A DNA stretch of 39,246 nucleotides from IMG/VR virus record IMGVR_UViG_2061766007_001614. One strand, given 5' to 3'. The DNA is from an uncultured virus (IMG/VR IMGVR_UViG_2061766007_001614). Lineage: Duplodnaviria; Heunggongvirae; Uroviricota; Caudoviricetes. Position 1 is the stretch's first letter, and each line of letters opens with the position of its first letter. The notes under the pieces are model-generated. The model was given only the letters and a program-made list of their open reading frames with translations. It was not told the DNA's origin and did no database searches. A program made the position numbers and the translations under genes. Shown here piece after piece: positions 1 through 32,797 of the stretch.

Positions 1-2583
1 CAACTTCTTCAGATATATCACACGGTTACCGAAGCTCAGAAAGAAGCTGTTGCCATTATCAACAAGGCAAAAGAAGAATATGGTTCAACCCAAGAGGCCT
101 TGGAAGCTTTAAGAGAGAAAGAGAAAACAGCAACAGGCGTTGAGTTGGAAAATATCAGAAACGAAATAACAGATATTGAAAACGCTGAGATTATATTTGA
201 AGATTCAAAACAATATATNNNNNNNNNNNNNNNNNNNNNNNNNNNNNNNNNNNNNNNNNNNNNNNNNNNNNNNNNNNNNNNNNNNNNNNNNNNNNNNNNN
301 NCCAGGCTGATATCGATAGTATTGATGCTGTATTAAAGAAAGTATATGAACTATCCGGCACTGCTAAAGAATGGAATGATATGCAGATCAAGTCGATTTT
401 TAATAATGCAGACTTGGGAATATCAAAGCAGAAATTGCAAGAGATGGCTAGTGCTGGTGAATTGTCCGAANNNNNNNNNNNNNNNNNNNNNNNNNNNNNN
501 NNNNNNNNTTCTCGGAGACGGCGAAACAGCATGGAGCCTGTTTAAGAACGAAATGCTTGCCAGTGCCAAAGCTGCAAAACAGGTTGACAATGAGCTTAGT
601 AATGCACTTGATTCAGCGAAATCTTGGGAATCAGAGCGCAACCAGGCTCTTGAAAAACTAGGACTTGCCAGGGAGAACAACGGAGAAATCGAGTATGACG
701 AATCCTGGACTAAGTATCTTGAAACAATCAAGCAGCTTAACCCTGAGTTAGCAAATAACGAGGAGGAAGTTGAAAAGTGCGCCCTTGCTAACCTGCAGTT
801 CTCTCATGCTGTAGATGACCTTAGCAAGAACTTTGAGACTTACAAGGCTGCGCTTCAGGATGCTGACGCTCTTACTCCAGAATTCTCAAATGCTATAAAT
901 GCATTGGCAGATGACCTGACATACCTTACTGGTATAAACTTCTCTGTCGAGGCTGCATCTAAGTTCCTTTCAGATGCAGAGAATCTTAATACGCTTGAGC
1001 AAGCAATCAAAGGTAGTGATGAAGCCTTACAGAAGTTACAAGCAACGGCTGCAAAGGCAATTCCTATAAACATTGATGCTAAATCTGTTGAAGAATTAAG
1101 AATACTCACTAAGGAATCTCTACCGCTAATTAAAGAAGAATTAGCATCAATAGGTGAAGGTGGCAATGTTAATCTTACTNNNNNNNNNNNNNNNNNNNNN
1201 NNNNNNNNNNNNNNNNNNNNNNNATGCTACTGTTTTCTCGTACACTGCATCAAATGCTCTTGGAGATGTGGCAATTAACTTTACTCCTATAATGGTTGAT
1301 CCTAAAACTGGTGAATTTTTAGGAGTAATGGAAAAGCAAGCTTTTTATGATTATTGTGATAAAGTTGTTGAAGGAGCTCCTGATGATTTAAATCTCCAGA
1401 TAGGTGCCAAGTNNNNNNNNNNNNNNNNNNNNNNNNNNNNNNNNNNNNNNNNNNNNNNNNNNNNNNNNNNNNNNNNNNNNNNNNNNNNNNNNNNNNNNNN
1501 NNNNNNNNNNNNNNNNNNNNNNNATGGTTGGATACTGCTGAATTAGGGACACTTGAAGCCCAGACATATCTTAATGAAAATCCATTTATTAATGGATTGA
1601 TTCATTTAATAAGTGCGTCCGAAGATATGGCAAACAAGATTAGACAGATATTTGCTGATCTNNNNNNNNNNNNNNNNNNNNNNNNNNNNNNNNNNNNNNN
1701 NNNNNNNNNNNNNNNNNNNNNNNNNNNNNNNNNNNNNNNNNNNNNNNNNNAATGCTGCTGGTGGTGCAGTTAGATATGAAGATGTAATTGTTCCGACAAA
1801 TATCCATTTCGAGAGAACTGGAGGTGCAGGGGCAAGACGTTCTGCTACTTCAGGCTATACTCCAAGATCAACGTCTCCATCACAAAAAGCCAGCTCCTCT
1901 CCTAGTAGCGGAGGAAGCGGCGGAGGCGGAGGCGGAAGCAGCNNNNNNNNNNNNNNNNNNNNNNNNNNNNNNNNNNNNNNNNNGGTCCTTGATCAAAGAA
2001 TAGATCTTCTTCGTGCCCATCTTGAAGATGTCGTAGGCTCAGTAGCAAAGAATATGCTGCTTGATGCCCAAGAAGCACAGATAAAGCAAAAGATGGCAGG
2101 CTATTCTTCTGCCATCGAAATGTATTCAGAAAAAGCTTCTGAGGCACTTTCCAAAATCCCGAGCNNNNNNNNNNNNNNNNNNNNNNNNNTTGCTATCGAC
2201 GAATTTATCGGCGAAGAAAACGAAGACGTTGTCCAGGCCATGAAAGATTATGATGGCTGGGCAGACAAAATTGCCGAGTGCAATCAACAACTTGTAGAAC
2301 TTAAAGAAGTATTAAGACAACTGGAGCTTGAAAAGTTCAATAATATCGTTCAAGACTTTGATACCTTGTATGATGTCAGACAGACACAGATAGACCTGAT
2401 AGATAAGTCAATTCAGCTGTTCGAAGCGGCAAGTGATAAGGTAGTAAGCAGAGCGTTCTATGATACATCTATTGACCAAAAGTCCAAACAGCTTGATAAG
2501 CTGATGGAGGAGAAAACCAAGCTGACCAATCAGATGACAAAGGCCATGGCAAATGGAATAGACGTTGCCAGTGACGAATGGTT
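1..2583 (+). CDS. Tape measure protein, 5' exon (start lies upstream of window)
   Basis: Successive + strand ORF pieces (100-336, 346-1278, 1154-1546, 1528-1773, 1613-2617) separated only by N gaps; helical Ala/Leu/Glu/Lys-rich with a Gly/Ser linker; lies upstream of distal tail gene. Ends at predicted intron 5' splice site (..SDEW-F). Confidence 0.85.
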
Positions 2584-2870
2584 TAGTAATAGACCGCTTA
2601 TGCAGAAATGCATATGAACAATAACACATTGAATTGCTGGAAAACCCTGAGAGCCTTATAGACTACAACGTAGAGATGAAAGATGCTCAGGCGTGAATGT
2701 TAAAAACTATAAGGATTGGGCAATCAGCAGCCAAGCCCTGAACAAGGGAAGGTTCAACGACTATCCTATATGGAGTAGGTGGCAAGCGCCACCGAAGCAG
2801 TGTGCATCCCACGTGGATGATGATATAGTCTGCTCTCTATANNNNNNNNNNNNNNNNNNNNNNNNNNNNN
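2584..2870 (+). ncRNA. Group I self-splicing intron (IA2-like, no ORF) in tape measure gene
   Basis: P1 GGTTTA-GTAA-TAGACC with U.G pair at 2583; P AATTGCTGGAAA 2632-2643; Q AATCAGCAG 2722-2730; R GTTCAACGACTA 2752-2763; S ATGATATAGTCT 2820-2831; P3 CACATT/AGTGTG; P7 GACTA/TAGTC; two extra helices P7.1/P7.2. 3' end lies in gap 2842-2872. Confidence 0.92.
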
Positions 2871-2872
2871 NN

Positions 2873-5566
2873 CAATGCCATTGAGGCAGTTAATGGTAAG
2901 ATCCTTGAAAGTCAGATGGCAATAGAGAATTATAAAAATGCTATAGCCCAGCTTTATCTCGAAGCATTCCAGCGTGAAGCCCAGAGATATGAGCATGTTA
3001 TATCTGCAAGAACTAAAGCAATTTCCGGTCTTGAGAACCAGATAGCTCTGCTTGAAGCACNNNNNNNNNNNNNNNNNNNNNNNNNNNNNNNNNNNNNNNN
3101 NNNNNNNNTCTGCTACAGAAAAGAACATAGATGTCCTTGAAAGAGAGCGTGTATCTCTTATAGACAAGCTAAACGATGGTCTTGCCAATGGCGTTAAGAA
3201 AGGTTCAGATGCCTGGTATGAAATGATAGATGCCATCAACGCTGTCGATACAGAAATACAGCAAGCGAAAATCTCTGTTGAACAATATAAGAAAGCTATC
3301 ATTGATACATACACTGAATTGTTTAATAGAGCCGCTAAGAACAATGCTAATGTACAATCCTTCAGGTCAATGGCAGTTAGTGGCATGCAGAAGCAGATTG
3401 AAGNNNNNNNNNNNNNNNNGTCCATTGAACAGACACAGAAACGTCAGGCCCAACTCGTAGCAGAGCGTAAAGAGCTCATGAAGAAGATGTCCGATGCTAC
3501 GAAGAATGGCGTTAAGGTCGGTTCGGACCAATGGATGTCAATGGTCAAGTCGCTCAATGATGTGGACATGGAGATTAAGCAATGTACCATCGATGTGAAC
3601 GGCTTTGAGGATGCTATCCTTGCACTAGATGATGCTTCATTTGATAGAATCCATGCCAAGTTCTCCAGCCTTGAAAGTGAACTGTCTAACCTGGCAGATT
3701 TGTTCTCGGGTGAAGATGTTGCTACTGAAGACAATAAATGGACCCGTTCTGGTCTGACACAACTTGGTATAGCTGCTCAGCAGTATGAACTTGCCAAGGA
3801 AAGTGTATCACAGTATAACAAGCAGATTGAAAAGCTGAACAGTGACTATGAAGCCGGTAAGTATTCTGTAACACAGTATACTGAGAAGCTTGCTGCACTG
3901 AAGAGTGAACAGTGGAATTCTGTTAAGTCAGCAGAGGCAGCCAAGAAGTCTATGGTTGAACTCAATAAGGCAAGAGTAGATATTGTCGTTGAGGGAATTA
4001 ACAAGGAGACAGAGGCCTATAGGAAGCTAATTTCTGCCGAAAAAGAGGCCTTAAGCGCTGAGAAAGAGTTGCATGATTATGAGAAGTCTNNNNNNNNNNN
4101 NNNATCGATAAGATTCAAAGGCAATTAGCTTCACTAGCAAATGACACATCACTTGCTGCTAATGCAAAACGTGCTCAGCTACAATCTCAACTTATAGATG
4201 CTCAGAAAGACCTCGCCGAGCTTGAGTATCAGCACTCTATCGAAACACAACAGGAAGCACTTGATACTCAGCTTACTAATTACGAGGATGCCCGTAACAG
4301 GGAGATTGAAACTCTTCAGCTTTCACTGGAAAATGAGGAACTGCTTATATCTGAATCCCTTCTCCGTGTGAAGGAAAACACTGATATCATCCATCAGGAA
4401 ATGCTGACAAAGGCACAGGAGAATGGTATCCAGCTGTCGACAGAAATCACTGCTCCATGGCTCGCCGGTGAAAGTGCCCTTGCTGGTTATGAACAGGTTC
4501 TGACTGAAAAGACATCTGCTTTCATTGAGCTGTTAAGAGGTGTCGAACAGAAAGAGTTTGATCTGCAGACCAACGCTGATATTGCCGGTCAGAAGATATC
4601 AGACATGCTAGGCAAAGATGCTGATAAACTTGTGGGAGAAACCGGTAAAGCAATCCTTGCATTCCAAGAGGAGGAAAAGGCTGCCAACCAGGGCGCTGAA
4701 AGTATTGAGAAGAACTTCACTAAAGAGTCTGAAAAGCTTGCGACTGAGATAGAAAAAGTCAATGAGAAGCTTCGTGATGAAGAGCGTGATTCAGACGCTG
4801 CCGCTCAGAGTATTTCAAATATGTTCGGGCTTACAGCGAATACTCTGATTAGCCAGATAGAGACAGCTTGGAATGACACAAAAATGCTCAAGGATGCTGC
4901 TGATTTTGCTGCGGGTAGTTTGAGTAATGCGATTGATGGTAAATATTCAGGGTCAAGTGCAGTAAGTGCTTTAGGTAATATCAAGGAAGCAGCTAATGGA
5001 GTAAAGGACGCTGCAGAGAGTGCGGCCCGGGCTCTACAGTCTATGGCGAGTATTACTCCAACATCACCGAGCGATCGTCCCACAAGATACAGAGTAACAA
5101 ATGCTAATGGTAATGTTATTTTTGATGGTACAAGCCTTTCTGCTGCACAGTATCAGGCACAATGGTACTCTGGTTCAACAATCACTCAGTATGCAAAGGG
5201 TATTANNNNNNNNNNNNNNNNNNNNNNNNNNNNNNNNNNNNNGAGAAGAGGCGATCATTGATCCGTCAACTGGAGGTATCCTGACCCCGCTTTCAAAAGG
5301 CAGTGCTGTGTTGCCAGCTGATCAGACCAAAAATATTTGGGAGTGGTCAAAGTTTGATCCGACAGAGTTTGCTTCTAAGCTTGCTCAAAGTATCAATAAC
5401 GTTGGAACAGGAAAAGTACAAACCAATACAATGCAAGTTGGCAGCTTAATAACGTTTAACGGTCCGGTAAATGATACCGCCGAAATGATACAGATAGCTG
5501 CNNNNNNNNNNNNNNNNNNNNNNNNNNNNGTCTTTCAGAGAACTAAGCAATGGTCTGACAGGCTGA
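2873..5566 (+). CDS. Tape measure protein, 3' exon
   Basis: Resumes NAIEAVNGKILESQMAIENYK; ~100-aa repeats (NGVKKGSDAWY, NGVKVGSDQWM); C-terminal YAKG...LSKGSAVLPADQT motif; ends FRELSNGLTG-TGA at 5566. Frame breaks coincide with N gaps. Confidence 0.85.
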
Positions 5567-11090: not shown

Positions 11091-11679
11091 ATGAACGCTG
11101 TAACACAGAATTATATTATCGACTTCTCGTCAAACAACAATTTTGTACAAGTGCCTGCTGTTCAGGGCGATGGTAATGATACAAGGTATATAGATATTGA
11201 GATGATTGAGAATGGAGTGCCCTTCTTGGTAGACAGTGAAACAGACTATGTGACCATCGCAGGAACAAAACCTGACGGAAAAGAAATCTGGAATCTATGT
11301 GAAATAACGAGTGCGGGCAAGATAAAGGTCGAAATTACATATCAGATGACTACTGTAGTTGGCCGAAGTGATTACGAGATAGTCATCTTTAGTAAGGGGA
11401 AGAACGATCAGATAAAGTCCTTCCCTTTTATTTTGCTTGTAACTCCTGCAACATTTGATCCGGGATATATCATCTCATCAAATGAGTTTGAGGCGCTTGC
11501 TCAGTTTACCACAGCTGCAGAGGCGGCTGCAGAGGCNNNNNNNNNNNNNNNNNNNNNNNNNNNNNNNNNNNNNNNNNNNNNNNCGAAATACCGGACACTT
11601 AATCTGCGAGAAGGTTGACCCATGGAGAGGAAGCTTTGAACTCGTAGACCATAAGAACCTACTGGTTCACTGGGAATAA
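11091..11679 (+). CDS. BppU-family baseplate upper protein
   Basis: VPAVQGDGNDTRYIDIEM...GTKPDGK N-terminal BppU-type motif; RBS GGAGG; continues across a gap to TAA 11679. Confidence 0.8.
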
Positions 11680-11696: not shown

Positions 11697-12725
11697 ATGA
11701 TGGCTACAACACAAGACTTAGGTTTAGTCACTTCATATGGATACGCAGNNNNNNNNNNNNNNNNNNNNNNNNNNNNNNNNNNNNTATCTTGCTCATCTTC
11801 CGGATTATACATCTGATGCACAAGCTGCCGCTGATGCCGCTGACGCAAGTGCTCAAGCGGCTGATGCTAGCGCACAGGCGGCTGATGCTAGCGCACAGAG
11901 TGCTGCTTCGGAAGCTGCGCAGGCTGCTACGTCTGAGAATAATGCAAGTCAGTATGCTACTAACGCTGCTACTTCCATGGCACAGGCTGCTACATATGCA
12001 AGTAACGCTTCTGAATCGGCAATAAATGCAGATCATTCAGCGGATAGTGCATATGACTCAGAACAGAGAGCTGCTCAGGCAGAACTAAGGGCTGCTGCTT
12101 CTGCTACTAATGCTGAGACTTTTGCTCATGATGCTGCTCTGTCAGCTGAGAATGCGGCTGCTTCAGAGGCCACAGTAGCTGCTGATGCTGCTTCAGCAAG
12201 AGAGGCTGNNNNNNNNNNNNNNNNNNNNNNNNNNNNNNNNNNNNNNNNNNNNNNNNNNNNNNNNNNNNNNNNNNNNNNACATCAGAAGCCAATGCTGCTA
12301 CTTCTGCTGAGAATGCAGCTACATCTGAGGTTAATGCTGCCACATCGGCTGAGAATGCTGCTACTGCAGAGACAGCTGGTATTGCACATGAGGTTAATGC
12401 AAGGACAAGTGCTATCCTCTCCCACTCATGGGCTGAGGGTGGTACTGGAGCAAGACCTGATGAAGCAACCAACAATGCCAAGTATTGGGCTGCACAAGCC
12501 AAGGCTATTGCTGGCATTGACGTATTTACCGGTGCAACAGCAACAACAAATGGTACTTTAGGCCTTGTACCCGGCCCTGGTATGGGACAACAGAACAGCG
12601 TGCTTTTTGGTGATGCTACATTTAAACAGTTGAATTATACATTTATTGGAACACCTACAGACTGGGACGACCTCTCTTCAGATGAGAAGTCGTTTTATAG
12701 AGTAGTTGTCCTTGATCAAGTATAA
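11697..12725 (+). CDS. Ala-rich coiled-coil tail fibre/adaptor protein
   Basis: MATTQDLGLVTSYGYA start, A/S-rich stalk, SWAEGGTG..NNAKYWA and FTGATATTNGTLGLVP motifs common in fibre proteins; stop TAA 12725. Confidence 0.7.
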
Positions 12726-12738
12726 AGGAGGAGGACAT

Positions 12739-13879
12739 ATGAGTCAGCATATTTATACATATGATCCCGTCAATGGTCTTGAAGAGATTGGCGGAGCTGG
12801 NNNNNNNNNNNNNNNNNNNNNNNNNNNNNNNNNNNNNNNNNNNNNNNNNNNNNNNNNNNNNNNNNNNNNNNNNNNNNNNNNNNNNAAACAACAAGACAGT
12901 TGTCACAATAACAGAGACAAACTTTGTTGGAACCATGGCAGAGTGGAATGCACTGACAGCTGATGAAAAAGCACAGTATAAGACTGTAGACCTGACGGAT
13001 GACTTTAACGGAGAGCCTATTGACTCTGAGCTTTCAACCACATCTGAACATACCGTACAGAATAAGGTTGTTACCGCTGCGATCAATGGAAAGGCTCAGA
13101 CTGATCACGCATCATCTTCGGCAACATACGGCCTTGGTACAGCTGCTAACTATGGCCATAACAAGATAATTGACAACCTGACAAAGACATCCCTGACAAG
13201 TGGAGAGGCTCTGTCAGCGCACATGGGTAATACACTTGGAAAGATGTTTGCTCCTATTGAAGCTGGTCCTAAGTATAGTACTAGTTATGCAGCCGGTACT
13301 CAGTTTGTATATAATGGCATACTTTATAAGACCACTACAGCAGTAACATCTGCCAGCGATATCAATACAGGAAGCGGTGGAAATGCCACTGCAGCCGGTA
13401 ATATCACTTCACAAATTAGCAATTTAGAGAGTAAGGTAAATGATAAATACCTACTGTTAGGAACTAAAGTTGTAACATTAGCCACAGGCAATGGTTCAAG
13501 AACTTGCAACACTCTGATGACATTAGCTCTGACAGCTTTAAATGCGATAGTTCCATCGTCTGAAGTTGCAGGTGCGACACACATGAAGCCTGTTTATTGT
13601 GCACTTCCATACGCTGATGGCGCGGGCACTCGTACTATATTAATACCCGAAAGTGGTTTATCACCTGTTGCTTCATTTAGTTCCAGCAGCTACAAATTTA
13701 TCAAAGTAGATGCAAGTTCAACAGGAGACGGTATAACTTTATGGAATGCTGATTTTGGATCTACAAATAGATGGTTTCTTCAATCAGTAACTACCGGAGC
13801 TCTTAGTGATTTCTTAACACGTAAACCAAGTAACGGCACTACTCTTGATGTTTGTTTGGAGTTTTACGCTAAATACTAA
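12739..13879 (+). CDS. Tail fibre/receptor-binding protein 1 (constant part plus currently attached variable C-terminus)
   Basis: RBS GGAGG, ATG 12739; conserved YNGILYK..TGSGGNAT..TSQISNL junction with site TAGCAATTTA at 13417-13426. Confidence 0.8.
13404..13428 (+). repeat. Putative recombination site in fibre gene 1
   Basis: TCACTTCACAAATTAGCAATTTAGA, identical copy at 14844-14868. Confidence 0.8.
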
Positions 13880-13917
13880 TATAGCAGGTGATCTAAACGG
13901 ATATGCTTAATGGCAAT

Positions 13918-14247
13918 TCAAATTATATATGCCAAAGACCCATAAGCAATGCCTGATGGTGCTCCACTTGATGAGGTACTTTCAGGAACAAAAGTCGAAA
14001 TAGTTATATTTCCATTCGTCGCAAGCGTGCATAATCCAGCATGATATCTCTCCGCTGAGTCTCTGACTCTGACAATAGTGGTAGTACTGCTCAACGGTCT
14101 ATAATCATTTGGTACGCTTCCGATCGCACCAGAGCTAACGGTGGCACCATTTAATACTAACGAAATGACATTACCAGTCTTAATCATTGAGACATTAGTT
14201 ATTCCAGAGTTTATACTTTTGCTTTCCAGGTCCTTTGATATATTGCT
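13918..14247 (-). CDS. Silent alternative fibre C-terminal cassette (inverted)
   Basis: Minus strand reads CGCCAAAT-AGC AAT ATA (site 14239-14255), in frame for 20 codons into ORF 13918-14187 (..VPNDYRPLS.. fibre-tip-like); no RBS at the site. Confidence 0.8.
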   Translation of the reverse strand, partial: SNISKDLESKSINSGITNVSMIKTGNVISLVLNGATVSSGAIGSVPNDYRPLSSTTTIVRVRDSAERYHAGLCTLATNGNITISTFVPESTSSSGAPSGIAYGSLAYII

Positions 14248-14404
14248 ATTTGGCGCTGAACGGTGGGGAGAGACGTGGGCAAAAATGAGTAAAAGGAACC
14301 GGCACTATTAAGTGCCGAACAAATGAATAAATATTCAAAAATATTAACAAGAGCGAGTGCTATTGGCATCTGCTCTTTTTTGATTTCGAAGAAAGGAGAA
14401 AAAA

Positions 14405-15319
14405 ATGAGTAGAAACAAATATGATTCATCTACCGGTACACTCACTCAAATCGGAGGATGGCAGGGCGTAGATAACGCTCTGTCAGATACATCCGAAAAT
14501 CCTGTTCAGAACAAGATCCTTAAGGGCGTACTGGATAAGACATACAAAGATGATGATACAGCAGAGACTGCCATAGCTGATGGAGATTACTTCCCATACT
14601 ATGACGTATCTGCCAGTGCAAAAAGGAAGACCCTGTGGAGCAATGTCGTTTCTAAATTGAAGAATGTATTTGCTACCACCACAACAGTAGCTCCTATAGA
14701 GACAACTACAACTGCAAGTAGGGCATATACTACTGGCCAACAGTTCATCCTTAACGGGATCCTCTACAAAGCCACAGCTAACATTTCGTCTGGTGGAACC
14801 ATCAATACCGGCTCTGGAGGAAACGCCACAACGGCTGCTGATGTCACTTCACAAATTAGCAATTTAGANNNNNNNNNNNNNNNNNNNNATACTACTGTGA
14901 AAACTTTTGAAGGAACAGCAACAGCGGCCGCTGATAATACTGTGAGCATTTCTTCAAATGACAGATTTTTTTGGTTTTCGCGTAGTCTGTTTATAAAGAG
15001 TGGATCTCTCACCTGTACTCTTTTATTTGGCGGTAAATATTATGTCAGGTTACAACAATTTAACATTTCTCAACTGAAGGATTTAATTCCTGCTGCTGAA
15101 ACTGTTGCAGTCGGTGGCTTGATAAAATCGATTGCAACCGTTGTTACAAACCAAAATTCCAACAATACATTTATATCTAATATTCTTTTAGTAAAAGAAA
15201 GCGCAACTGAAGCAAGATTAATATGTGATATATGGAGTTCAGACACAAGCGGAAACATTGTAAAAAATGATCCTTATCAAATAGGGTTACGTGTCTCAGG
15301 AGCTATGTCAATTTACTAG
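14405..15319 (+). CDS. Tail fibre/receptor-binding protein 2
   Basis: VDNALSDTSENPVQNK motif; shares the junction domain and 25-bp site with fibre 1, then an unrelated C-terminus. Confidence 0.8.
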   Translation: MSRNKYDSSTGTLTQIGGWQGVDNALSDTSENPVQNKILKGVLDKTYKDDDTAETAIADGDYFPYYDVSASAKRKTLWSNVVSKLKNVFATTTTVAPIETTTTASRAYTTGQQFILNGILYKATANISSGGTINTGSGGNATTAADVTSQISNLXXXXXXXXTTVKTFEGTATAAADNTVSISSNDRFFWFSRSLFIKSGSLTCTLLFGGKYYVRLQQFNISQLKDLIPAAETVAVGGLIKSIATVVTNQNSNNTFISNILLVKESATEARLICDIWSSDTSGNIVKNDPYQIGLRVSGAMSIY

Positions 15320-15383
15320 GTGGAATCACTGCTGAAAACTCGAGGTTTTACTTCAGTTCAGGCCAAACCAATGCGACATGCGC

Positions 15384-15400
15384 AATGTTGCTATTTAGCG
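15384..15400 (-). repeat. Putative inverted recombination site
   Basis: Minus strand CGCTAAATAGCAACATT; TTGCTATTTAGCG matches TTGCTATTTGGCG (14243-14255) at 12/13. Confidence 0.6.
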
Positions 15401-15543
15401 AAACAACTTTGACGAGAATGGTAGGTGGATTGTAGTGGACGACGGGGAAACTGAGTAAAAGGGATTTAACATTTTGACAGATGAGTAAAAGGACAAATAA
15501 ATATAAACGTGGCTGACTTTTGTTCAGCCAAATATTAACACGA

Positions 15544-15576
15544 AAAGAGCATCTGGCTACGGCCAGGTGTTTTTTG
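15544..15576 (+). terminator. Rho-independent terminator
   Basis: AAAGAGCATCTGGC-TACG-GCCAGGTGTTTTTTT. Confidence 0.7.
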
Positions 15577-15611
15577 TTGCAATTAACAACTCATAAAAGG
15601 AGGAATTTAAA

Positions 15612-15854
15612 ATGAATTACGATGGAAAGTTTTATCTTGTTGAGGTTACAAAGTACGTGGACGGTACAGCTGATGCAAAGGCTATCTATACCTATGACAC
15701 AGAGACAGAGGCCATCGCTAACTTCCACAGCAAGATGGGTGGAGCTATGAAGAATGCTAACTATGCATTTGAGATGCTTCACGTAATCAGCGACTACGGT
15801 GTTGTTGTTAAGACCGAGTACTTCGAGAGAGCAGTTGAGACACCTGAAGAGTAA
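15612..15854 (+). CDS. Small hypothetical protein after fibre genes
   Basis: 80-aa ORF with strong RBS AAGGAGG; followed by hairpin 15874-15906. Confidence 0.75.
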   Translation: MNYDGKFYLVEVTKYVDGTADAKAIYTYDTETEAIANFHSKMGGAMKNANYAFEMLHVISDYGVVVKTEYFERAVETPEE

Positions 15855-15968
15855 TCTCTAGATAGAAATAATTAAGAGGCTGGCACCTTTTGGTGTTCAG
15901 TCTCTTTCTTATTTTCTAGAGTCTCTGACAAAGGATGCAGCTTGTGTCTTTTCTCAGAGATTTTTGGA

Positions 15969-15997
15969 ATGACATGTAAACTAAATTGTGATATAAT
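15969..15997 (+). promoter_or_regulatory. Sigma70-type promoter for recombinase
   Basis: ATGACA-17 bp-TATAAT with extended TG. Confidence 0.6.
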
Positions 15998-16126
15998 ATT
16001 ACCCAAAACTAAAAAATGAGATGAGCGCCGACTACCAATCAACTACTCATCTCCAACCACGAAGGTTCGGGTATATTATAACACGAACCCTTACCTTTGT
16101 GTACCACAAAAGGAGGGTTTTTTATT

Positions 16127-17105
16127 ATGGAAAAATTCGTAAATGAACTGATGGCTAGCTTGCTTGGAAAGATCCGGGATGATGACCTGAAGACTGTAAG
16201 AGCCGTAGTCTTTAACACACTGAAAGAATACGACGTCAAGAAGAAAGAGAATGCTATTGTCCCGCTGACCTATGATATCCCCAAGGAAGTAAAGGAGTAC
16301 ATCGTATCCAAGAGGATTGAAGGCCTCAGTTATAAAACTCTTCAGCAGTATTGGTATTGCCTGAAGCTGTTCTTTGAAGCTGTGCAGAAACAGGTAACAG
16401 AGATTACTGCAGAAGATATCAGACTCTATCTGTATAACTATCAAAAGAATTCTAACGTGGCAGATATAACCCTTGACAGTAAGAGGCTTTATCTCCACTC
16501 CTTCTTTGAATGGCTTACCCTGAATGATTACATCAAAAAGAATCCATGCGGTCTTATCAACCCTATCAAGTATGAGAAAAAGGTGAGACAGCCGCTTAAT
16601 GATATTGAGATGGAGAAACTCCGCCAGGCATGCTCTACTCCCAGAGAGAAGGCTTTTGTTGAAGTCTTATACTCTACTGGCTGNNNNNNNNNNNNNNNNN
16701 NNNNNNNTTGACTTTGAGAAAAGAGAAGTTTCATTGTTTGGTAAAGGAAAGAAACATCGAAAGTCCTACTTAAATGCCAGGGCTATCATTGCGCTGCATA
16801 AGTACATCACTTCTAGAGAGAGTGACTCTGAATATGTCTTCACCTCAGAGAAGAAACCGTCTAACCCTATCCATGCCAGAACTGTACAGACAACAATCAG
16901 AAGCCTTGGAGAAAAAGCCGGTATACAGGGAAGGGTGTACCCACATCGGATCAGGCATACCACTGCCACAGATGCTCTGTCCCGTGGCATGGCTATCGAG
17001 CAAGTACAAACGCTCCTCGGCCATGAGAAGACTAGCACGACCTTGATCTACGCAAAAATAAATCAGACGGGAGTAAAGATGGAGAGCCTGAGGTGTATCG
17101 TCTAA
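16127..17105 (+). CDS. Tyrosine recombinase (XerD-like), putative shufflon invertase
   Basis: RBS AAGGAGG, ATG 16127; SAM-like N-domain, LYSTG.., FGKGKKHR, HRIRH, LLGH, TTLIY catalytic motifs; frame split only by an N gap. Confidence 0.9.
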
Positions 17106-17145
17106 TTTGCGATGCAACCATTCCTATGGGCATACTGCGCCCTAT

Positions 17146-17982
17146 AGCAATTTAGACTCCAACGTAAGCAATTTAAACACGAATTTAAACAATGAAACAT
17201 ATGATTTGCAGAGGGTTGTTTACAATGAGCGCTACAATAATTCTGTGAATTTTCTTCCAGTACAGGTAAATACGCTGAAGCTCTATAACACAGCTGGAAC
17301 CTGGAACAACTCAACCAATACATATACGATAGGGAATCTCTCCTTTGCGGTGTCAAATGGAGTTGTTACTGTGCAAGGTTCATACAGCGGAACTGTATCC
17401 TTTGATATTCCTTTCCCTAAGTTTACATCGTATGCCTCTGCCTCTGTCCAGATGAGTGGATGTCCTAGTGGTGGAAGTTCTTCGACATACAGAATGATGC
17501 TCCAAGACTTCTCTGGTACTGCGACTGTTCTTGCTAGAGATACTGGTTCGGGGGATAGTGCTACGCTACCATCATCTTACACAGATCTTAGATGTAGAAT
17601 TGCTCTGACTAATCCGTCAAATGTGAATCTGAGATTCAAACCGATGATAACTATATCTGGTATGCCGGAGTCTGATTATGACCATTTCAGACCATATGCA
17701 ATGAGTAATTATCATCTGCAAAGAAGTTTACTTATTACAAGAAGTTTCACCGTTCCTACTTTTAATATGCCAGAAGGTATTTTCGTTGACACTATAAACG
17801 TAGAACTTCCAGAAGGTTATCAAATATTAGGAATTGTTGGCTATAATTTATCACGCAATAAATATATAACTTTAATGCAGCTTTATTGGTCGAATGAAGA
17901 TAGTACGGTTTCAATTGGTGGATATGCTTCGTCAGCGGCTTTCTTTAATGGTTCTATAACGTTGCTACTAATAATGAGATAA
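17146..17982 (+). CDS. Silent alternative fibre C-terminal cassette
   Basis: Begins at CGCCCTAT-AGC AAT TTA GA (site 17145-17154) just after the recombinase stop; no RBS/ATG; beta-rich fibre-like sequence (LRFKPMI..DYDHFRPYA). Confidence 0.78.
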   Translation, partial: SNLDSNVSNLNTNLNNETYDLQRVVYNERYNNSVNFLPVQVNTLKLYNTAGTWNNSTNTYTIGNLSFAVSNGVVTVQGSYSGTVSFDIPFPKFTSYASASVQMSGCPSGGSSSTYRMMLQDFSGTATVLARDTGSGDSATLPSSYTDLRCRIALTNPSNVNLRFKPMITISGMPESDYDHFRPYAMSNYHLQRSLLITRSFTVPTFNMPEGIFVDTINVELPEGYQILGIVGYNLSRNKYITLMQLYWSNEDSTVSIGGYASSAAFFNGSITLLLIMR

Positions 17983-17987
17983 ACTTG

Positions 17988-18257
17988 CTAATTGGCATAG
18001 TTGTACAGGAAGTATAATGAACCCGNNNNNNNNNNTGTTCCATTACAGTTAAATCTAACCCACATTTCATTGGTTGTACTACTATTTTTAACTGCTTGCT
18101 GAGCAACATCTTTTGCAGTACCAGCGGAATCTGTACTTGCATAAGTAAAAAACACGTACTGGTTATTAGCTACTGGAATATTTAAAGCATCTGGATACCC
18201 ATACGCTATGGTATTTAAAGGAAGACTATTTACATCTTTAAGAGGCAGAGGCTCCAA
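17988..18257 (-). CDS. Silent fibre C-terminal cassette (partial, inverted)
   Basis: DVNSLP..ALNIP..AQQA..MWVRF knob-like motif; stop codon embedded in site-like TGCCAATTAGCAAG; 5' end merges with an unrelated + strand gene. Confidence 0.6.
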   Translation of the reverse strand: MEPLPLKDVNSLPLNTIAYGYPDALNIPVANNQYVFFTYASTDSAGTAKDVAQQAVKNSSTTNEMWVRFNCNGTXXXXGSLYFLYNYAN

Positions 18258-18402
18258 CGCAGCCCGTGATTCAAGAGGAAGGTATTACGAGGGTGGTTAT
18301 CCAAGGGATACAAAATCCGAACTCGAGAAACTTATGCACACAACAGAAAACGACCGTGAGCGTGAAGCAATCAGAAGCGCACTCGATCATATGAACAGAT
18401 AA
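18240..18402 (+). pseudogene. 3' part of a phage protein (RGRGSNAARDSRGRY...)
   Basis: Coherent C-terminal reading frame followed by hairpin 18428-18463; N-terminus missing. Confidence 0.45.
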
Positions 18403-18493
18403 TGAAATACGAATAGATTTACTGATTAAGAGCACCTGACATGATTATGTTGGGTGCTTTTTGTCTAGAGATTTATTTAGGAAGGAGGCAATT

Positions 18494-18865
18494 ATGGACT
18501 ACGAAAAAAAGATAGCTGATGCAATGGAACATGCGGAAAAGGTCAAACTAAAACAGGAGTTGTATGAACTAAGGCATTCGAATGACAAACAAAGAGAGAA
18601 ATTATCCTTCAGTAAGATTGCCTTCATATTCATGATGACTAACTGCGTAGTGATTGAGATCTATGCTTTGTTCGCGATGTTTTACTTCGGGGACTTATCT
18701 TCTCTCTCAGCTTTGATTGCCGCAGTCGTAGGAGAATGTGTTTCTTTTCTATGTTTTGAGATTAAAGCCGGGAAAGAGAATTCCAAGAATGGAATCGTAT
18801 ACGAAACCGCCATGAAGAAGCTTGAACATGAACTAGAAAATAATAACGACGATGCCGTCGGGTAA
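18494..18865 (+). CDS. Holin-like membrane protein
   Basis: RBS AAGGAGG, two hydrophobic segments, upstream of endolysin. Confidence 0.65.
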   Translation: MDYEKKIADAMEHAEKVKLKQELYELRHSNDKQREKLSFSKIAFIFMMTNCVVIEIYALFAMFYFGDLSSLSALIAAVVGECVSFLCFEIKAGKENSKNGIVYETAMKKLEHELENNNDDAVG

Positions 18866-18874
18866 GGGGGTTCT

Positions 18875-20234
18875 ATGGATAGAAACTATACATTGTATAT
18901 GCATATCGTTCCAGCAAATCTAACCGGGAAAGAACATGATATGTATTATATTGGAGCAACAGGAAGAAATGTCCAAGATCGATGGAAGGTTAATGGTGAT
19001 GGGTACCATAGAGGAACTGTTTTCAGAGAAGCTATTGAACAATATGGATGGAAGAATATAAAACATATAATCATTCTTCGAGGGCTAAGTAAAGAAAACG
19101 CTTATTACTGTGAGAAACGGTATATTCAAAGATATAAAAGCAATAATGAAGAGTATGGTTTTAATAGAACAATCGGTGGGATTGGAGGGAACATTAAGCC
19201 GGTTGTCCCAGTTATTCAATATGATCTTGAAGGAAACTTCATAAGAAGTTGGAAAAGCGAAGCCGAAGCTGCACGGCATATGGGTGTAATTAGGAGNNNN
19301 NNNNNNTCAATTCAGCAGATGTACTCGCTCTCAATGAGTCATCTAAAATAAAGAAAGTAGTTGCACTATACCTATAAATTCTCCAAGTTGTAGTTGCCAG
19401 CTGATCAGTACCACGAGTCATTCTTGTTAATGCCACAGTTTCGCCGTTATTTGTAGGTAATAATGATCCTAATAAAATTCCTGCATCAGTACCTGATAAT
19501 GAGTACAGTGGTGCGTAATGATAGGTGGAACCATTGATTGTAATTTCAAAGTCATTAGTTACACTAGTTTTATCAACACTAAATACTCCATCATAATAGA
19601 ACATAACATTTGTAATACATCTCATAGTGATCTCAGTATTTGCATTAGCTCCTGACGTTTTAGCGGTAATGCTTTGCCATGGAGATATACGAAAAATGTT
19701 ATTACTTGATGATAATCCAATGCCGGTCGTAGGAATGTTGTTTATTAAATTGCTAATAAACGTGTTTACACTACTTGTAGTTGCATAAGAACTTAATTCG
19801 CTTTTTGTGGCGTAGTAACTTAAGTCATCAGTGTTTGTAAGTCTTTTCCAAGATGTCCANNNNNNNNNNATGCCACTGTTAAAGGATATCAATTTAAAAA
19901 AGCCGATGCTCCTGTCCCAGGGAAGTATAAAAAAAGAACAGGGATAAATAGTACTGGTCCCAGACCACATTGTAGAGGTGAAAATAATTCAAAATCAAAA
20001 AGCGTCGTTCTTTTAAATACTGGAGAAGTGTTCCCATGTTTACGTGAAGCATGCAAAAAAACTGGTGCAAACATATGTATGGTTTCAAAAAACTGCATAA
20101 CCCAAAAAGGCTCATCTGGTAGAGATCAAAACAGGAAACGATTAGTATGGCGATTTTATCAGGACTACATCTGCATGACACAAGATGAGATTAACGATGC
20201 TGTTGAGCAAGCACAACATCCAAATCATAGATAA
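18875..20234 (+). CDS. GIY-YIG homing endonuclease with NUMOD1-like HTH domains (split by a gap-flanked insert 19307-19859)
   Basis: YTLYMH..YYIG..RW..E..GFN motifs; PVIQYDLEGNFIRSWKSEAEAAR and VVLLNTGEVFPCLREAC domains on either side of the insert. Confidence 0.8.
19307..19859 (-). CDS. Fragment of a third fibre gene with shufflon-type site (probably misplaced contig)
   Basis: WTSWKRL..YATKSELSSYATTSSVNTF-ISNL; ATTAGCAATTTA at 19746-19757 (minus); bounded by two 10-N gaps. Confidence 0.65.
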
Positions 20235-20245
20235 AGGAGGTTTCT

Positions 20246-21739
20246 ATGGCTACAGCTAATGATTTAATCAATTGTGCCCAAAAATATATAGGTATTGAAG
20301 AGACGTATAATAATAACGTCATTTTTAATACAAGATACTATGGACATAGCGTTAATGGTTCTCAATATAGTTGGTGTTGTGTCTTTATATATTGCCTGTT
20401 CGAAGACTGTAATGCCTCTGAATTATTCTACGACGGAAAGAAGACTGCCCTGTGTCAGACATTGGCTGACTGGTTTAAGGCTAAAGGGCAATGGTATACC
20501 ACCCCTCAGGTCGGTGACTGTGTGTTCTTTAAGTATGGAAGTTCAGTAAGATATACCGATCATATCGGGATAGTTGAAAAGATATATGCGGATGGAAGTA
20601 TTGGAACGATAGAAGGAAACACCTCAGACAAGAATAACCGTAACGGTGGCATGGTAATGAGGCGGACACGTAAGAGCGGAATCGTTGGATATGGCAGACC
20701 AAAGTATAGTACTTCTGCTCCGTTCTCTCCTGTAAAGCCATATATGTTCAAAGGAGTGGACGTGTCAGCATGTCAAAGAAATGTTGATTACTCAAAATTA
20801 AAAGAGTCAGGTGTTGAATTTGCTATCATAAAAATAATCCGTAAGAATCTTAATCCGGACGAAATGTTTGAAAAGCACTATACGGGATTCACATCTGTAG
20901 GAGTGCCAGTCTTCGCTGTATATAACTATTCATACGCGACTACTGTTGAGAAAGCTCGTATAGATGCACAGGCAGTGATCAGGACACTGTCGGGAAGAAA
21001 AATCCCGGTTTGTTTTGATGCTGAAGATAATGTTCAGAAAGGACTGGGAAGTCTTCTAGTTGACATGATAAATGCTTACCAGGAAGTTATAGAAAAGGCA
21101 GGACTTCCATTTATCTTATACACAGGTCCCGCTTTTTACAACCAGTATATCAAGCCATGGGAAAGGAATCTGAAGTGCAAAGATATCTGGATGGCACGAT
21201 ACTATAAAGGTAACACCATCATGCCGTTTAATATGGATCCTGACCAGTCAAAGAAACCACTCGACGGAATTGTTGGATGGCAATACACATCTCATGGAAA
21301 TGTTAATGGTTATAATGGGAATATAGATCTTGACATCATTTATAGGGATATATCTTCACCTATGCCCGCTGCAGACAAGAGGATTGTCGCAAGAGTAAAG
21401 ACTATGGGGTCAAGGCTGAACGTCCGTAAAAAGCCTAATAATGGAACCGTAGTAGACAAATTAAACAATGGAGCTGTGGTGAATATTTTAGATCTTGATT
21501 ATACATCGGGATGGTACAGACTTGGTAAGGACAGATATGTCTCTCCCAATTACATAGATGGTGCTGTTGGAGTTGTGACAACCGGAGCTCTTAATATAAG
21601 AAATGCAGACTCTACCAAGGGACAGATCGTGGGAAGATTTTTAAAGGGTGATACTACTCCAATCGTCAAGCAGTCACAGACCGGCTGGTATCTCACTCCG
21701 AAAGGATGGGTCTCCAATAATTATGTTAAGCTACTCTGA
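20246..21739 (+). CDS. Endolysin: CHAP + GH25 muramidase + two SH3b-like domains
   Basis: WCCVF..HIGIV..IEGNT (CHAP); GVDVS..FDAED..WQYTS (GH25); LNVRKKP and LNIRNA SH3b-like repeats. Confidence 0.9.
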   Translation: MATANDLINCAQKYIGIEETYNNNVIFNTRYYGHSVNGSQYSWCCVFIYCLFEDCNASELFYDGKKTALCQTLADWFKAKGQWYTTPQVGDCVFFKYGSSVRYTDHIGIVEKIYADGSIGTIEGNTSDKNNRNGGMVMRRTRKSGIVGYGRPKYSTSAPFSPVKPYMFKGVDVSACQRNVDYSKLKESGVEFAIIKIIRKNLNPDEMFEKHYTGFTSVGVPVFAVYNYSYATTVEKARIDAQAVIRTLSGRKIPVCFDAEDNVQKGLGSLLVDMINAYQEVIEKAGLPFILYTGPAFYNQYIKPWERNLKCKDIWMARYYKGNTIMPFNMDPDQSKKPLDGIVGWQYTSHGNVNGYNGNIDLDIIYRDISSPMPAADKRIVARVKTMGSRLNVRKKPNNGTVVDKLNNGAVVNILDLDYTSGWYRLGKDRYVSPNYIDGAVGVVTTGALNIRNADSTKGQIVGRFLKGDTTPIVKQSQTGWYLTPKGWVSNNYVKLL

Positions 21740-22540: not shown

Positions 22541-22785
22541 TCCCACTACATGTTAATTGTTTCCTACCACAATTCTCCACCACAACTGAGCTAAAAATAA
22601 TCGGTAAAAAGCGGTAAATACAGGGAACTCAGATTGGTCCCAAAATAGCCTTAATCCCAGTGAATATGCGGGTTAGAACATNNNNNNNNNNNNNNNNNNN
22701 NNNNNNNNNNNNNNNTTGATTAATCCCAGTATTTATGCTATATTTTAAACATCAATTGTGGTAAGTAACGGTATATCTACCACAT
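22541..22785. other. Putative attP with arm-type repeats
   Basis: C(T/C)ACCACA-like repeats at 22543, 22564, 22577, 22756 (inverted) and 22777; TTAATCCCAGT direct repeat at 22651 and 22720; immediately 5' of the integrase. Confidence 0.65.
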
Positions 22786-22804
22786 GTGCTTCGAGGTGAA
22801 AAAC

Positions 22805-23963
22805 ATGAAACGTAAAAATGGTGAAGGGACATGGGGATTTAAAACCATCAAAGGTGTAAAGTATGTTTTCCACAGGAATTCTAATGGAAAATACTTTTAT
22901 GGCAAGACTGAAAAAGAAGTCTGGGACAAGATTGAGAGACAGAAACGAATAGATGCAATGGCCTCTTCTGTAAATGATGTCGTAGGCAAACCCTCCATGA
23001 TATTCTATAAGTATTGCATCAATTATGTTGAAAGCATCAAGATGACTCTCCAGCCGTATACCTATTATAATTATACTCATATGATTAATAACTTTCTTGA
23101 ACGGAGCAGCATTGGTCGTAAACAACTTCACCAGCTGACCCCTGATATGTTTAGTCGATGGTATAGCACACTTGCGGAGGAATACTCTTATGGCACAATA
23201 CGATCCATACATAAGATACTTAAAGGTCCACTAAATGCTGCTGAAGATGAGGGGCTTGTTAAACTAAATACACAAAAAAAGATTAAGCTCCCGATGGAAC
23301 GATANNNNNNNNNNNNNNNNNNNTATCCCAGATTTAGATGAAATGAAAATGATTGAAGAATTGTGCTATAGAAAGAATAAGCATGGAAACTATAAACTAG
23401 GGAACAATGGGCTTGCTTATATCTTTATCTTGCATACCGGGCTAAGATTAGGAGAGCTGATTGCTCTACGGTGGAACGATGTTGATACAAAGAATCACCG
23501 GATTGATATAAATAAGTCTGCCTCGTTTAGGGTAATAAATGGCAAGCAAGTTTACGAGGACAAGGCCCCTAAATCCAAGGCAGGTTTTAGAAAGATTCCT
23601 TATGATAATACTGTTGAAACAATCCTTTCATATTTAAAAGAAAACTATCCTCCGGAACTTGATTCTGTAAATGGACATGTGTTTACCAATAGTCGTCACA
23701 GTCACATGTGTAAGTCTACTCTAGAAGAATGCTTAAGGAAAAATATTGCAAACAAGTATAACATGCCAAGGCTTACACCTCATACATTAAGACACGGATA
23801 TAGTAGTTTCTTAGCCTCAAAAAAAGTCAATCCAAAAGTAATAGCAAAGCTTATGGGGCATGAAAGGGTAAATTTCACATTTGATGTATATGTTGATAGT
23901 TATGAAGATGACATGATTGAAGCGGCAAACCTTTTAAACGAATTAGGATCAAATGCAGAATGA
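22805..23963 (+). CDS. int: Phage integrase (tyrosine recombinase)
   Basis: MKRKNGEG arm-binding start, HTGLRLGEL, PKSKAG, HTLRH, MGH, DVY motifs; frame split at an N gap. Confidence 0.92.
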
Positions 23964-27550: not shown

Positions 27551-28697
27551 TTAACCCCTCAGCAATGTTATGTTCTGCTTCAGGCACTCAATAAAATACA
27601 GTGCCTCTTCTTCTGTGTTGTCATCCCCTATACTTATCCTTATGGAACTGTTGGCCTGCTCATCAGTAAGGCCTATCGCTCTTAATACATGTGATGGTTG
27701 CCCTGAGTTGGAATTACATGCGGACCCTGTTGACAGATAAATCCCCTGTTCATTGAACAGTGCCTGGAGTTCTTCTCCTCTGCAGCCATCTACTCTTATA
27801 TTAAGATGCCTCGGATCCATTAATTCAATTTTACCATTAACATGCACACCTTCCAATTGGTTAATTTTCACCAATATAAGGTCTCGAATTTTACGTTCCC
27901 GTGCATCGCTGGCAGACATCTTATCCATGGTAAGCTCAGTNNNNNNNNNNNNNNNNNNNNNNNNNNNNNNNNNTAGAAGCTCTCATCCCTCTTTCCTGTT
28001 GTCCGCCACTGATCAGTGGAGCATAACGCTTTTTTACTTCATTTGATACAAATAGGAATCCGACGCCTTTTGGTCCACGAATCTTATGTCCACTAGCAGA
28101 TAGGAGCTTGATATGAGATTTTTTAACATCAATCGGCATGTGCCCAAAAGACTGGACGGCGTCAGTATGTAAGAGGATTGCGCGATCCTCACATAAAGCA
28201 CCTATTTCATCTATCGGTTGTATCGTCCCGATTTCATTATTGACCATCATGATAGAACATAACTCAGTGTTTAGCCTGAAAGCATCAGATACTTTCGTCG
28301 GATCTATCACTCCACTAGGCTCCGGAGAGACTAATGTATATAGAATGTCTTCACGCTCGTTCCACCGGTCCTTAAGAGATTCCAGTATAGCATGATGCTC
28401 TATAGATGAAGCAATAATATGCATGGGATGAAAGTGGTATCTGTTCTTTAACCCCTTTATAGCCCAGTTATCAGATTCAGTGCCTCCACTGGTAAAATAT
28501 ATTTCCTCAGGTTGGGCATTGATTGCTGCAGCTATTATCTCCCGGGATTCTTCAATTGCAGCCCTGGATTTTTCACCAAGTTCANNNNNNNNNNNNNNNN
28601 NNNNNNNNNNNNNNNNNNNNNNNNNNGGGAGCATAGCATTTTTTACATAAGGATGTATTTTAGTGGTCGCTGCGTGGTCGAAATATACATTGTCCAT
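27551..28697 (-). CDS. iscS: Cysteine desulfurase (IscS/NifS group I)
   Basis: YFDHAATT, FTSGGTESDN, HTDAVQ, SGHKIRGPKG (PLP lysine), STGSACNS (catalytic Cys), SIRISIG; split at an N gap. Confidence 0.9.
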
Positions 28698-28701
28698 ATA
28701 T

Positions 28702-28932
28702 TCACCTCTCTGCGCTTTTTACTTTCGAATCCTTAGCAACATTCTTCCTTGCCAGACTCTTAACCGGATCATTCTCCTCAAATCCAAATATATTGTTCAT
28801 GTTGAAGCAGGCAACTATTGTATCCCCAATATTGAAGTTTAAGATGTTATGGTTATCTATTGTCCAGTCTTCTGCCTGGATATTTATCACATCACTTGTT
28901 GATGCTGAAAAATAAACTGTAAAATTACTCAT
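28702..28932 (-). CDS. Hypothetical protein
   Basis: 76-aa ORF, RBS GGAGG. Confidence 0.65.
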   Translation of the reverse strand: MSNFTVYFSASTSDVINIQAEDWTIDNHNILNFNIGDTIVACFNMNNIFGFEENDPVKSLARKNVAKDSKVKSAER

Positions 28933-28944
28933 TCTTTTTTCCTC

Positions 28945-29406: not shown

Positions 29407-29526
29407 TGCTCACATTCCTCCTTGATTCTTTCTTGAATAATTTCTACAACAACATCTCTATCGATACACCATGACGTAGCGTAATTACATTCTCCTTCTC
29501 TAGAATCCATTTCCTCGATCTCCGAT

Positions 29527-31044: not shown

Positions 31045-31147
31045 TTCAAGTCTGTAAGTACTTCGATAATCTTCTTATTTACATAGTCTTCTAACATCTT
31101 TTCCTGGTCTATATGTAAACCATGTGATGCATAGAATTCCCTGTCAC

Positions 31148-32776: not shown

Positions 32777-32797
32777 GTTTTCTCACTTTCCTGTGGT

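Follow-up and report, generated by a model that had tools for sequence, protein, structure and literature searches.

A candidate Rin-type shufflon at two tail-fibre genes of an uncultured rumen phage

Results

The window analysed here, the whole 39,246-nucleotide (nt) IMG/VR record IMGVR_UViG_2061766007_001614, is a scaffold of a phage or prophage of the Caudoviricetes from a rumen or cattle-gut source, and relatives of the phage point to Clostridia-type hosts. Downstream of its tail genes (DUF6558, Prophage_tail, BppU_N at 11091-11618) lies a region with two tail-fibre genes, several fibre-like frames that lack start codons and a gene for a Xer-like tyrosine recombinase; it is followed by a GH25/CHAP/SH3 endolysin gene (20246-21739) and then by a tyrosine integrase gene (22784-23963). 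An original prediction, made from the letters of the window, had proposed that this region is a shufflon in which one tyrosine recombinase swaps receptor-binding tips across several expressed fibre genes. All sequences quoted in that prediction lie where it had put them. The scaffold contains 40 runs of N, whose lengths are not true to the real gaps.

Two fibre genes diverge behind an identical site

Each of the two fibre genes consists of a constant part and a tip. The constant part of fibre gene 1, whose product gave a weak match to phrog_455, reaches up to a joint at 13417, and its present tip (tip 1) occupies 13418-13879; in fibre gene 2, the constant part is followed by tip 2 (Table 1). 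The two fibre proteins are 36% identical across 140 residues and their alignment stops at ...TSQISNL, as expected from the claim that the fibres share this joint and diverge behind it. At the DNA level the joint is marked by sites A and B, which are identical at 25/25 nt exactly where this identity had been placed, and which conclude a stretch of 68 nt with 79% similarity. The ends of public contigs suggest that the exact repeat is about 30 nt long. The core of the sites, TAGCAA(T), falls at the codons Ile/Asn-Ser-Asn of the fibre genes, and its Ser codon, AGC, makes up just 12.5% of the Ser codons in the phage genes of the window. Further degenerate copies that had been reported near 13878 and 13905 are present but weak (Table 1).

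Comparison with public contigs also clarified the runs of N in this region. The run in fibre gene 1 (12801-12885) corresponds to 87 letters in place of 85 N, and the contigs have 9 extra letters at the run behind site B (after 14868) and 14 extra letters at the run inside the recombinase gene. With these lengths, both fibre genes and the recombinase gene are unbroken reading frames.

Start-less cassettes adjoin further copies of the site

The region can be divided into two modules and a store. Module 1 contains site A, tip 1, cassette C in inverted orientation and site C; module 2 contains site B, tip 2 and stub E; and the store beside the recombinase gene contains site D, cassette D, site F, tip G in inverted orientation and site G. 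Cassette C, tip G and stub E face the fibre genes, and cassette D points the same way as the genes. Start-less frames begin at sites C and D in Ser-Asn phase, as predicted (Table 1), and the first ATG of cassette C comes 20 codons into its frame. This cassette gave weak matches to phrog_9468 and phrog_13141, and the Atlas model of its residues 21-109 resembles the C-terminal head domains of BppU/YomR-type baseplate proteins, a likeness that we take as a lead only (template-modelling score by query about 0.7). The three other predicted sites, E, F and G, are all present, and G is in frame with its tip; the frame behind E is only 14 codons long, however, and F lies over a stop codon and opens only 11 codons in Ser phase, so that F is not a 5' junction. 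The tip of a related virus described below (L069) has the same kind of site across its TAG stop.

Sites A, B, D and G have 12 nt of core in common. The left arms of the sites that do not lie in an expressed gene (parked arms) are non-coding yet alike, reading GCGCCAAAT, GCGCCCTAT and TCGCTAAAT in the window and GCTAAAT in L069. The flanks behind sites C and E, which were compared for paralogy, share a 13-nt site block and nothing more.

Two pieces of the scaffold, 18036-19296 and 19307-19859, are probably swapped. Several results point to 18025, then 19307-19859, then 18036-19296, then 19870 onward as the true order. One contig of sequencing run X2, which according to its label comes from the same sample as the window, links 18025 to 19307 with 39 letters in between; a second X2 contig links 19859 to 18036; and loose ends in X1, a run of the source sample, are consistent with the joint between 18025 and 19307. 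All three boundaries of the two misplaced pieces are runs of 10 N. Furthermore, the corrected order makes three reading frames continuous: tip G continues into its short end at 18025-17988, as read in a fibre from another metagenome (P0012, below); a second frame reads ...NCNGT/WTSWKRL... across the joint and matches the protein P0056; and a GIY-YIG/NUMOD homing-endonuclease frame runs from 19296 into 19872-20234. We take the misorder to be a scaffolding error and not a rearrangement. In the corrected map, the recombinase gene is followed by cassette D on the plus strand, by one long minus-strand frame ending at 17988 and by the lysis genes.

The long minus-strand frame includes a knob-like domain (18257-18036) to which P0056 is 96% identical, with a ...YSNL... 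joint about 20 residues upstream. Because this joint is absent from the window and no ribosome-binding site (RBS) precedes the TTG at 18257, we read the frame as a silent cassette of two modules whose 5' joint has been lost, with site G, inside it, as the one site that remains usable. A second kind of joint was sought at 18258 and 19800, and nothing above chance was found at either position. Contigs of X1 and X2 share 19800-19859, beyond which they carry a different and shorter sequence that includes an ...ISNL... joint of its own and leads to another tip; the point of divergence is not the core but a position 43 nt upstream of site G, and the arrangement resembles that of P0056 and may reflect a second strain or an older joint. 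The knob-like domain also recurs five times in tandem in P0058, a protein of 928 amino acids (aa) whose end looks, by eye, like an SGNH/GDSL-type hydrolase region.

Table 1 Features of the shufflon region (positions in the window; aa, amino acids; ORF, open reading frame)
Feature	Position	Strand	Remarks
Fibre gene 1	12739-13879	+	RBS and ATG at 12739; frame spans a run of N
Site A	13404-13428	+	Proposed crossover site in fibre gene 1; core TAGCAAT at 13417-13423
Degenerate site-like sequence	13864-13885	+	At the stop of tip 1; 77% complementary to site E over 22 nt
Cassette C	13918-14247	-	Start-less tip, 109 codons from Ser to stop at 13918; convergent with tip 1
Site C	14239-14255	-	Parked-type left arm GCGCCAAAT before AGCAAT
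Fibre gene 2	14405-15319	+	RBS and ATG; constant part to 14857, then tip 2
Site B	14844-14868	+	Proposed crossover site in fibre gene 2; run of N directly after 14868
Site E and stub E	15348-15400 (site 15384-15400)	-	Frame stops after 14 codons
Small ORF, 80 aa	15612-15854	+	Between module 2 and the recombinase gene
Promoter-like site	15969-15997	+	Upstream of the recombinase gene; 11/12 consensus matches with TG; consensus match only
Xer-like tyrosine recombinase, putative invertase	16127-17105	+	PF13495 (1.1e-10), PF00589 (2e-24)
Site D and cassette D	17138-17982 (site 17138-17154)	+	278 codons from 17146
Site F	17981-17997	-	Between the 3' ends of convergent cassettes D and G; overlaps the TAG stop of G
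Tip G, end	17988-18025	-	Last 11 codons and stop
Knob-like domain	18036-18257	-	Precedes 19859 in the probable true order; own 5' joint missing
Site G and main body of tip G	19307-19757 (site 19746-19757)	-	In frame; tip about 174 codons
Coding stretch upstream of site G	19758-19859	-	Part of the long silent cassette; same stretch in P0056

A Xer-like recombinase lies among the cassettes

The recombinase gene is located between sites E and D, and its stop codon is 33 nt upstream of site D. Its product comprises a SAM-like core-binding domain and a catalytic domain only, with no arm-binding domain. The top NCBIfam matches were XerA, XerC and XerD (12 matches, all under the equivalog cut-offs), and the best match in the PDB was 4a8e, a XerC-like/XerA protein (2.9e-17). 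The Lys, His-x-x-Arg-His, Gly-His and Tyr residues align to 4a8e, and the position of the first Arg falls in the run of N. These matches bear out the prediction of a XerD-like recombinase amid the cassettes, and the enzyme is distinct from the integrase encoded downstream of the endolysin gene. A Pfam scan of 16 + 27 = 43 ORFs of the window, in which smaller ORFs were included within 10-22 kb, revealed no Resolvase domain (PF00239).

The small ORF upstream of the recombinase gene had no Pfam or PHROG family, its nearest Atlas clusters were unnamed viral proteins, and it did not align to the small ORFs of the contig L015 described below. We rejected a candidate likeness between the -10 region of the promoter-like site of the recombinase gene (15981-16003) and the left arm of site A; at 83% complementarity over 23 nt it is at chance level, as by our own estimate about 15 such pairs are expected in the region.

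Searching metagenome_contigs with the recombinase revealed 32 loci, with a highest identity of 58%. Relatives of 44-58% identity on these contigs lie just upstream of endolysin genes (L005, L006, L010 and L011) or beside fibre genes (L012, L015 and L021). In L012 and L021, which were chosen by a scan for TAGCAA and encode recombinases 52% and 46% identical to that of the window, AAATAGCAA is found at the adjacent fibre joint, where the core with an AAAT left flank is in frame. A 12-mer screen around 22 loci with recombinase relatives uncovered repeat families in a few; those of L015, L025 and L009 are repeats other than the TAGCAA site. The L015 locus (1-5330) is laid out differently: behind each of its two tandem fibre genes come a small ORF and an exact 83-nt direct repeat, a 19-nt repeat is present in four direct copies upstream of the recombinase gene (49% identity to that of the window), and there are no inverted cassettes. 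In the records of Terrisporobacter and Clostridium perfringens phages, a Xer-like gene carries the label 'integrase' (PP197244.1, 4920-5915; MW478291.1, 4989-5966), and Terrisporobacter phage TPELB_ph1 has a second, larger integrase elsewhere in its genome.

Sequence similarity to relatives is lost at the sites

We compared the window with Logan contigs of four runs (X1, X2, X3 and X5); parts of the window that had no cover in a run (e.g., 18248-19099 in X1) were not counted as evidence. Independent contigs of the four runs reproduced the local sequence across sites A-F. The contigs of X3 and X5 represent relatives at 90-95% identity that keep the constant parts, and they cover the N-terminal parts of the fibres, a segment that begins at 15388, ends at about 17113-17154 and contains the recombinase gene, and 18302-18795. 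Similarity was lost at 5/7 sites (A, B, C, E and D), and sites F and G fall outside the X3/X5 cover. At A, B, C and E the breaks lie within about 10 nt of the core. Relative contigs end at 13422 (X3) and 13428 (X5) at site A, and at 14866 (X3 record 17) at site B; two X3 contigs and two loose ends of X5 diverge at 14232-14242 at site C; and at site E, X5 record 25 starts at 15388, and X3 retains just a 21-nt island (15388-15408). At site D, X5 diverges behind 17154, and the X3 contig ends at 17113, 31 nt before the core. Depth was 0.4-2.1 in cassette bins versus 5-14 in constant bins.

Other searches returned little. A blastn search of 12600-20300 against phage records gave one 70-nt match only, the 25-mer site had 0 matches in IMG/VR, and the constant part of fibre 2 produced only short N-terminal motif matches (5 loci in genome_contigs and 26 in viral_contigs). 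A tblastn search of fibre 2 against phages gave no match.

Tips of the window are joined to other fibres elsewhere

When the constant part of fibre 2 was used as a query, P0012 was retrieved, a 488-aa fibre of another metagenome whose own constant part shows 53% identity to the query and is joined at ...SQISNL to a tip that matches tip G at 147/150 residues from I-S-N-L on, versus 1/6 just before the joint. A search for P0012 in viral_contigs gave no match. Conversely, P0009 is 95% identical to fibre 2 over residues 1-154 and then continues into a tip that is absent from the window. An x-x-I-S-N/D-L joint is present in 12/40 and 4/15 retrieved fibre relatives, and near-identical constant parts precede unrelated tips behind the joint in P0023, P0025, P0026 and P0029 and also in P0033, P0037 and P0038. 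The domain of cassette D forms the C-terminal end of the full-length fibres P0004, P0006, P0050 and P0052; the last two share the N-terminus of fibre gene 1 and thus carry a fibre-1-type N-terminus with the cassette D domain at the end.

The DNA joint of the window was also found in two IMG/VR viruses rated 100% complete, L068 and L069. L069 (7320-8030) contains an inverted start-less cassette whose left arm reads GCTAAAT and whose TAG stop is overlain by a 3' site. In L068 (8000-9150), a second fibre-like frame, which is convergent and cut off by the end of the contig, contains an inverted copy of the joint. The L069 fibre matched only itself and one 24-residue stretch in viral_contigs. Shuffling in L068 and L069 would need an enzyme acting in trans.

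Genes around the region

The homing-endonuclease gene whose frame is split by the misorder (GIY-YIG/NUMOD1; 18875-19296 plus 19872-20234) is located between a gene for a 134-aa membrane protein (18461-18865), possibly a holin, and the endolysin gene. Past the integrase gene, the window encodes a class-V aminotransferase (27554-28697, split by a run of N), a TnpB/Cas12f-like ORF (29610-30965) and a LAGLIDADG endonuclease ORF (33298-34137); the genes at 27554-34137 could be the host's or another element's.

Discussion

We regard the locus as a genuine shufflon of the Rin kind, well formed and in part decayed, and put the probability that the adjacent Xer-like enzyme inverts the fibre tips at the TAGCAA(T) core at roughly 0.6. 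According to this model, the recombinase, equipped with its own promoter-like site, would cut and rejoin DNA within the shared core, and inversion between a plus-strand and a minus-strand site would replace the tip of a fibre and park the old one. Left arms would stay with the upstream DNA, either as an expressed joint or as a parked non-coding arm such as GCGCCAAAT, and right arms would move with the tips. Recombination of A with C would produce fibre 1 with tip C, B with E would produce a truncated fibre 2 (i.e., an off state), and A or B with G would produce a fibre with tip G and flip the recombinase gene too. Fibre 2 with tip C could arise through a flip of its own 5' part, recombination at E or F would generate truncated forms, and expression of cassette D would need two steps. 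The D/G store would reach either gene only via inversions of 3-6 kb that also flip the recombinase gene. Given the identity of sites A and B, both fibre genes could draw on a single tip pool, and as A, B, D and G share the 12-nt core, the enzyme could not tell the genes apart. Anatomy and comparison support the predicted tip-swapping shufflon: the layout, the codon phase, the breakpoints in relatives and the use of tip G in the expressed fibre of another phage are observed, and action of the enzyme on these sites, present-day inversion and a pool common to both genes are inferred.

Several results weigh against an active shufflon of this kind. The original prediction had named alternative junctions as a check, and the relatives do differ at the sites, but an inverted junction was not among the joints listed for the four runs: 0 strand changes in 7 joints, counted in contigs only, which drop rare variants. 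Single X1 contigs (records 4, 5 and 6; depth 7-9) extend unbroken across C, E, D and F. In the window the bare core shows no enrichment, with 8 occurrences of WTAGCAAT versus 5.2 expected, and 7/23 matches to WTAGCAA fall within 13.3-19.9 kb (P 0.08); the longer pattern WWTAGCAABWT has 7/7 matches there, a count that is circular, as the pattern was fitted after the fact. Cassette D has a possible start of its own (TTG at 17107, with GAGG 12 nt upstream), E and F open into 14 and 11 codons, the long minus-strand cassette has no 5' joint, and no expressed gene adjoins the D/G store. PF00589 and PF00239 were each found in 0/2 of L068 and L069, which shows that a phage can have the joint and yet lack such an enzyme of its own. 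Finally, TPELB_ph1 and Clostridium phage phiCp-D encode distant relatives of the recombinase (32-38% identical) at a position between the holin gene and the last of the tail genes, and no repeated sites were found around them.

These observations leave room for other explanations. The region might be an evolutionary mosaic in which SQISNL is a structural hinge, tips are exchanged by homologous recombination, the inverted cassettes are relics and the Xer-like enzyme has another job, e.g., resolution of phage genome multimers or a second integration function. The lack of an inverted junction among the listed joints, the wide spread of the joint in fibre proteins, its presence in L068 and L069 next to neither a tyrosine nor a serine recombinase, the site-free recombinases at the same position in cultured phages and the signs of decay all agree with a mosaic. 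We nevertheless consider it unlikely: start-less cassettes lie inverted and in exact codon phase beside each gene, in a layout that recurs in L069; the conserved non-coding left arms are not explicable by protein constraint; the recombinase gene sits between E and D, a mere 33 nt from the latter; and a shared core of 6-12 nt is short for homologous recombination. Separate local switches, with fibre 1 flipping between tip 1 and C, fibre 2 turned on and off and the D/G store a dead remnant outside any pool, are in our view improbable. Each fibre gene does have an inverted partner site 0.5-0.8 kb from its own site, the store adjoins no expressed gene and contains a truncated long cassette, and a long inversion would turn round the other fibre gene along with that of the recombinase; against this, A and B match exactly over at least 25 nt and share their 12-nt core with D and G, which would make them indistinguishable to the enzyme, tip G is intact and serves as an expressed tip elsewhere, and cassette D is an intact 278-codon frame.

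It is very improbable that the A/T-rich cores are coincidental and the odd frames a product of mis-scaffolding. The 7- and 8-mers of the core are not enriched, and the scaffold is indeed misordered with mis-sized runs of N, but contigs of four runs reproduce the sequence at sites A-F, the similarity of relatives breaks at the sites, and P0012 is joined exactly at site G; contig comparison and the P0012 joint largely refute such an artefact. The last two results also indicate that the sites are more than chance. As a tentative extension of the shufflon model, the TAGCAA sites may define mobile tip cassettes that are excised and inserted as well as inverted and are shared among rumen or gut phages; a single Xer-like enzyme could then move whole tips in and out and also shuffle them among two or more expressed fibre genes of one phage. 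Tip G is bounded by a site at both ends (5' in Ser-Asn phase and 3' over the TAG stop), as is the L069 tip, and its 98% identical copy lies behind a fibre constant part that is only 53% identical. If true, this would amount to a cassette market for host range, as integrons share genes, and in L068 and L069 the enzyme would have to be supplied in trans, by a helper phage or by the host.

The closest known system is the Rin shufflon. The sections of Mavrich et al. 2018 (PMC6109161) on this system describe, in prophages of Bifidobacterium breve and B. longum, a phage XerD-like tyrosine invertase that acts on receptor-binding-protein tips, with inversions seen in prophage versus virion reads; the novelty implied by the original prediction is therefore not upheld. 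Rin shufflons are also described in Eggerthella lenta prophages in the relevant part of PMC8778435. As far as those sections of PMC6109161 describe it, the Rin system shares with the window a phage XerD-like recombinase that lacks an arm-binding domain, is separate from the integrase and lies at the flank of the cassettes; variable C-terminal cassettes that lack start codons, paired with a receptor-binding gene whose N-terminal part is constant; short asymmetric sites (11 bp in Rin), one within that gene and one ahead of every cassette; and a further site directly behind the 3' end of the expressed gene, comparable to site F here. Set against the same descriptions, the window differs in having two expressed fibre genes with an identical site and one invertible segment apiece, and in its additional, separate store beside the recombinase gene; in its core, TAGCAA(T) versus TTCCCTAACCC in Rin; in its suggested Clostridia-type hosts as opposed to Actinobacteria; and in that inversions were seen there and none among the joints listed for the window. 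In the texts that it returned, a full-text literature search on Rin shufflons gave no two-gene or Firmicutes example, which is not proof that none is in print.

In the shufflon of plasmid R64, the tyrosine recombinase Rci acts on 19-bp sfx sites and exchanges the tips of pilV, a single constant gene for a conjugative pilus adhesin. Like R64, the window combines a tyrosine recombinase with several short asymmetric sites in inverted orientation and with C-terminal cassettes that are start-less and convergent, and multi-step inversions are predicted to give many isomers. It differs in that the targets are phage fibre genes near BppU_N and tail genes and in that the enzyme is closest to XerA, XerC and XerD, with the Rci-type model found among 0 of its 12 NCBIfam matches. 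We presume that the core of the window sites differs from that of sfx as well. The R64 shufflon is mentioned in the introduction of PMC9881135.

Gin of Mu, Cin of P1 and Min of p15B are serine invertases that invert the 3' ends of fibre genes, as outlined in parts of PMC6109161. The expected outcome is alike, namely a phage host range switched by inversion of a fibre 3' end; in contrast to those systems, no Resolvase-domain ORF was found among the 43 scanned ORFs of the window. Integrons consist of attC-bounded cassettes and IntI, a tyrosine recombinase. The window has in common with them a Xer-related tyrosine recombinase and a tip (G) that is bounded by sites in direct orientation and found, nearly the same, in an unrelated fibre elsewhere. 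Unlike integrons, it has no folded attC and no attI-promoter arrangement, and its cassettes are gene fragments fused in frame.

The principle of tip swapping has been in print since 2018, and the locus adds another member of the Rin kind. As the recombinase is labelled 'integrase' in relatives, such loci are easily overlooked, and sites of this type break or misorder short-read assemblies, as happened in this scaffold. The in-frame ...SQISNL joint with its interchangeable natural tips provides a guide to modular fibre parts, and the near-identical tip G in another phage indicates that the same joint marks exchange between phages. If the shufflon is active, one temperate rumen phage would show several receptor-binding tips on two fibres without mutation, which would bear on host range and on phage-host dynamics in the rumen.

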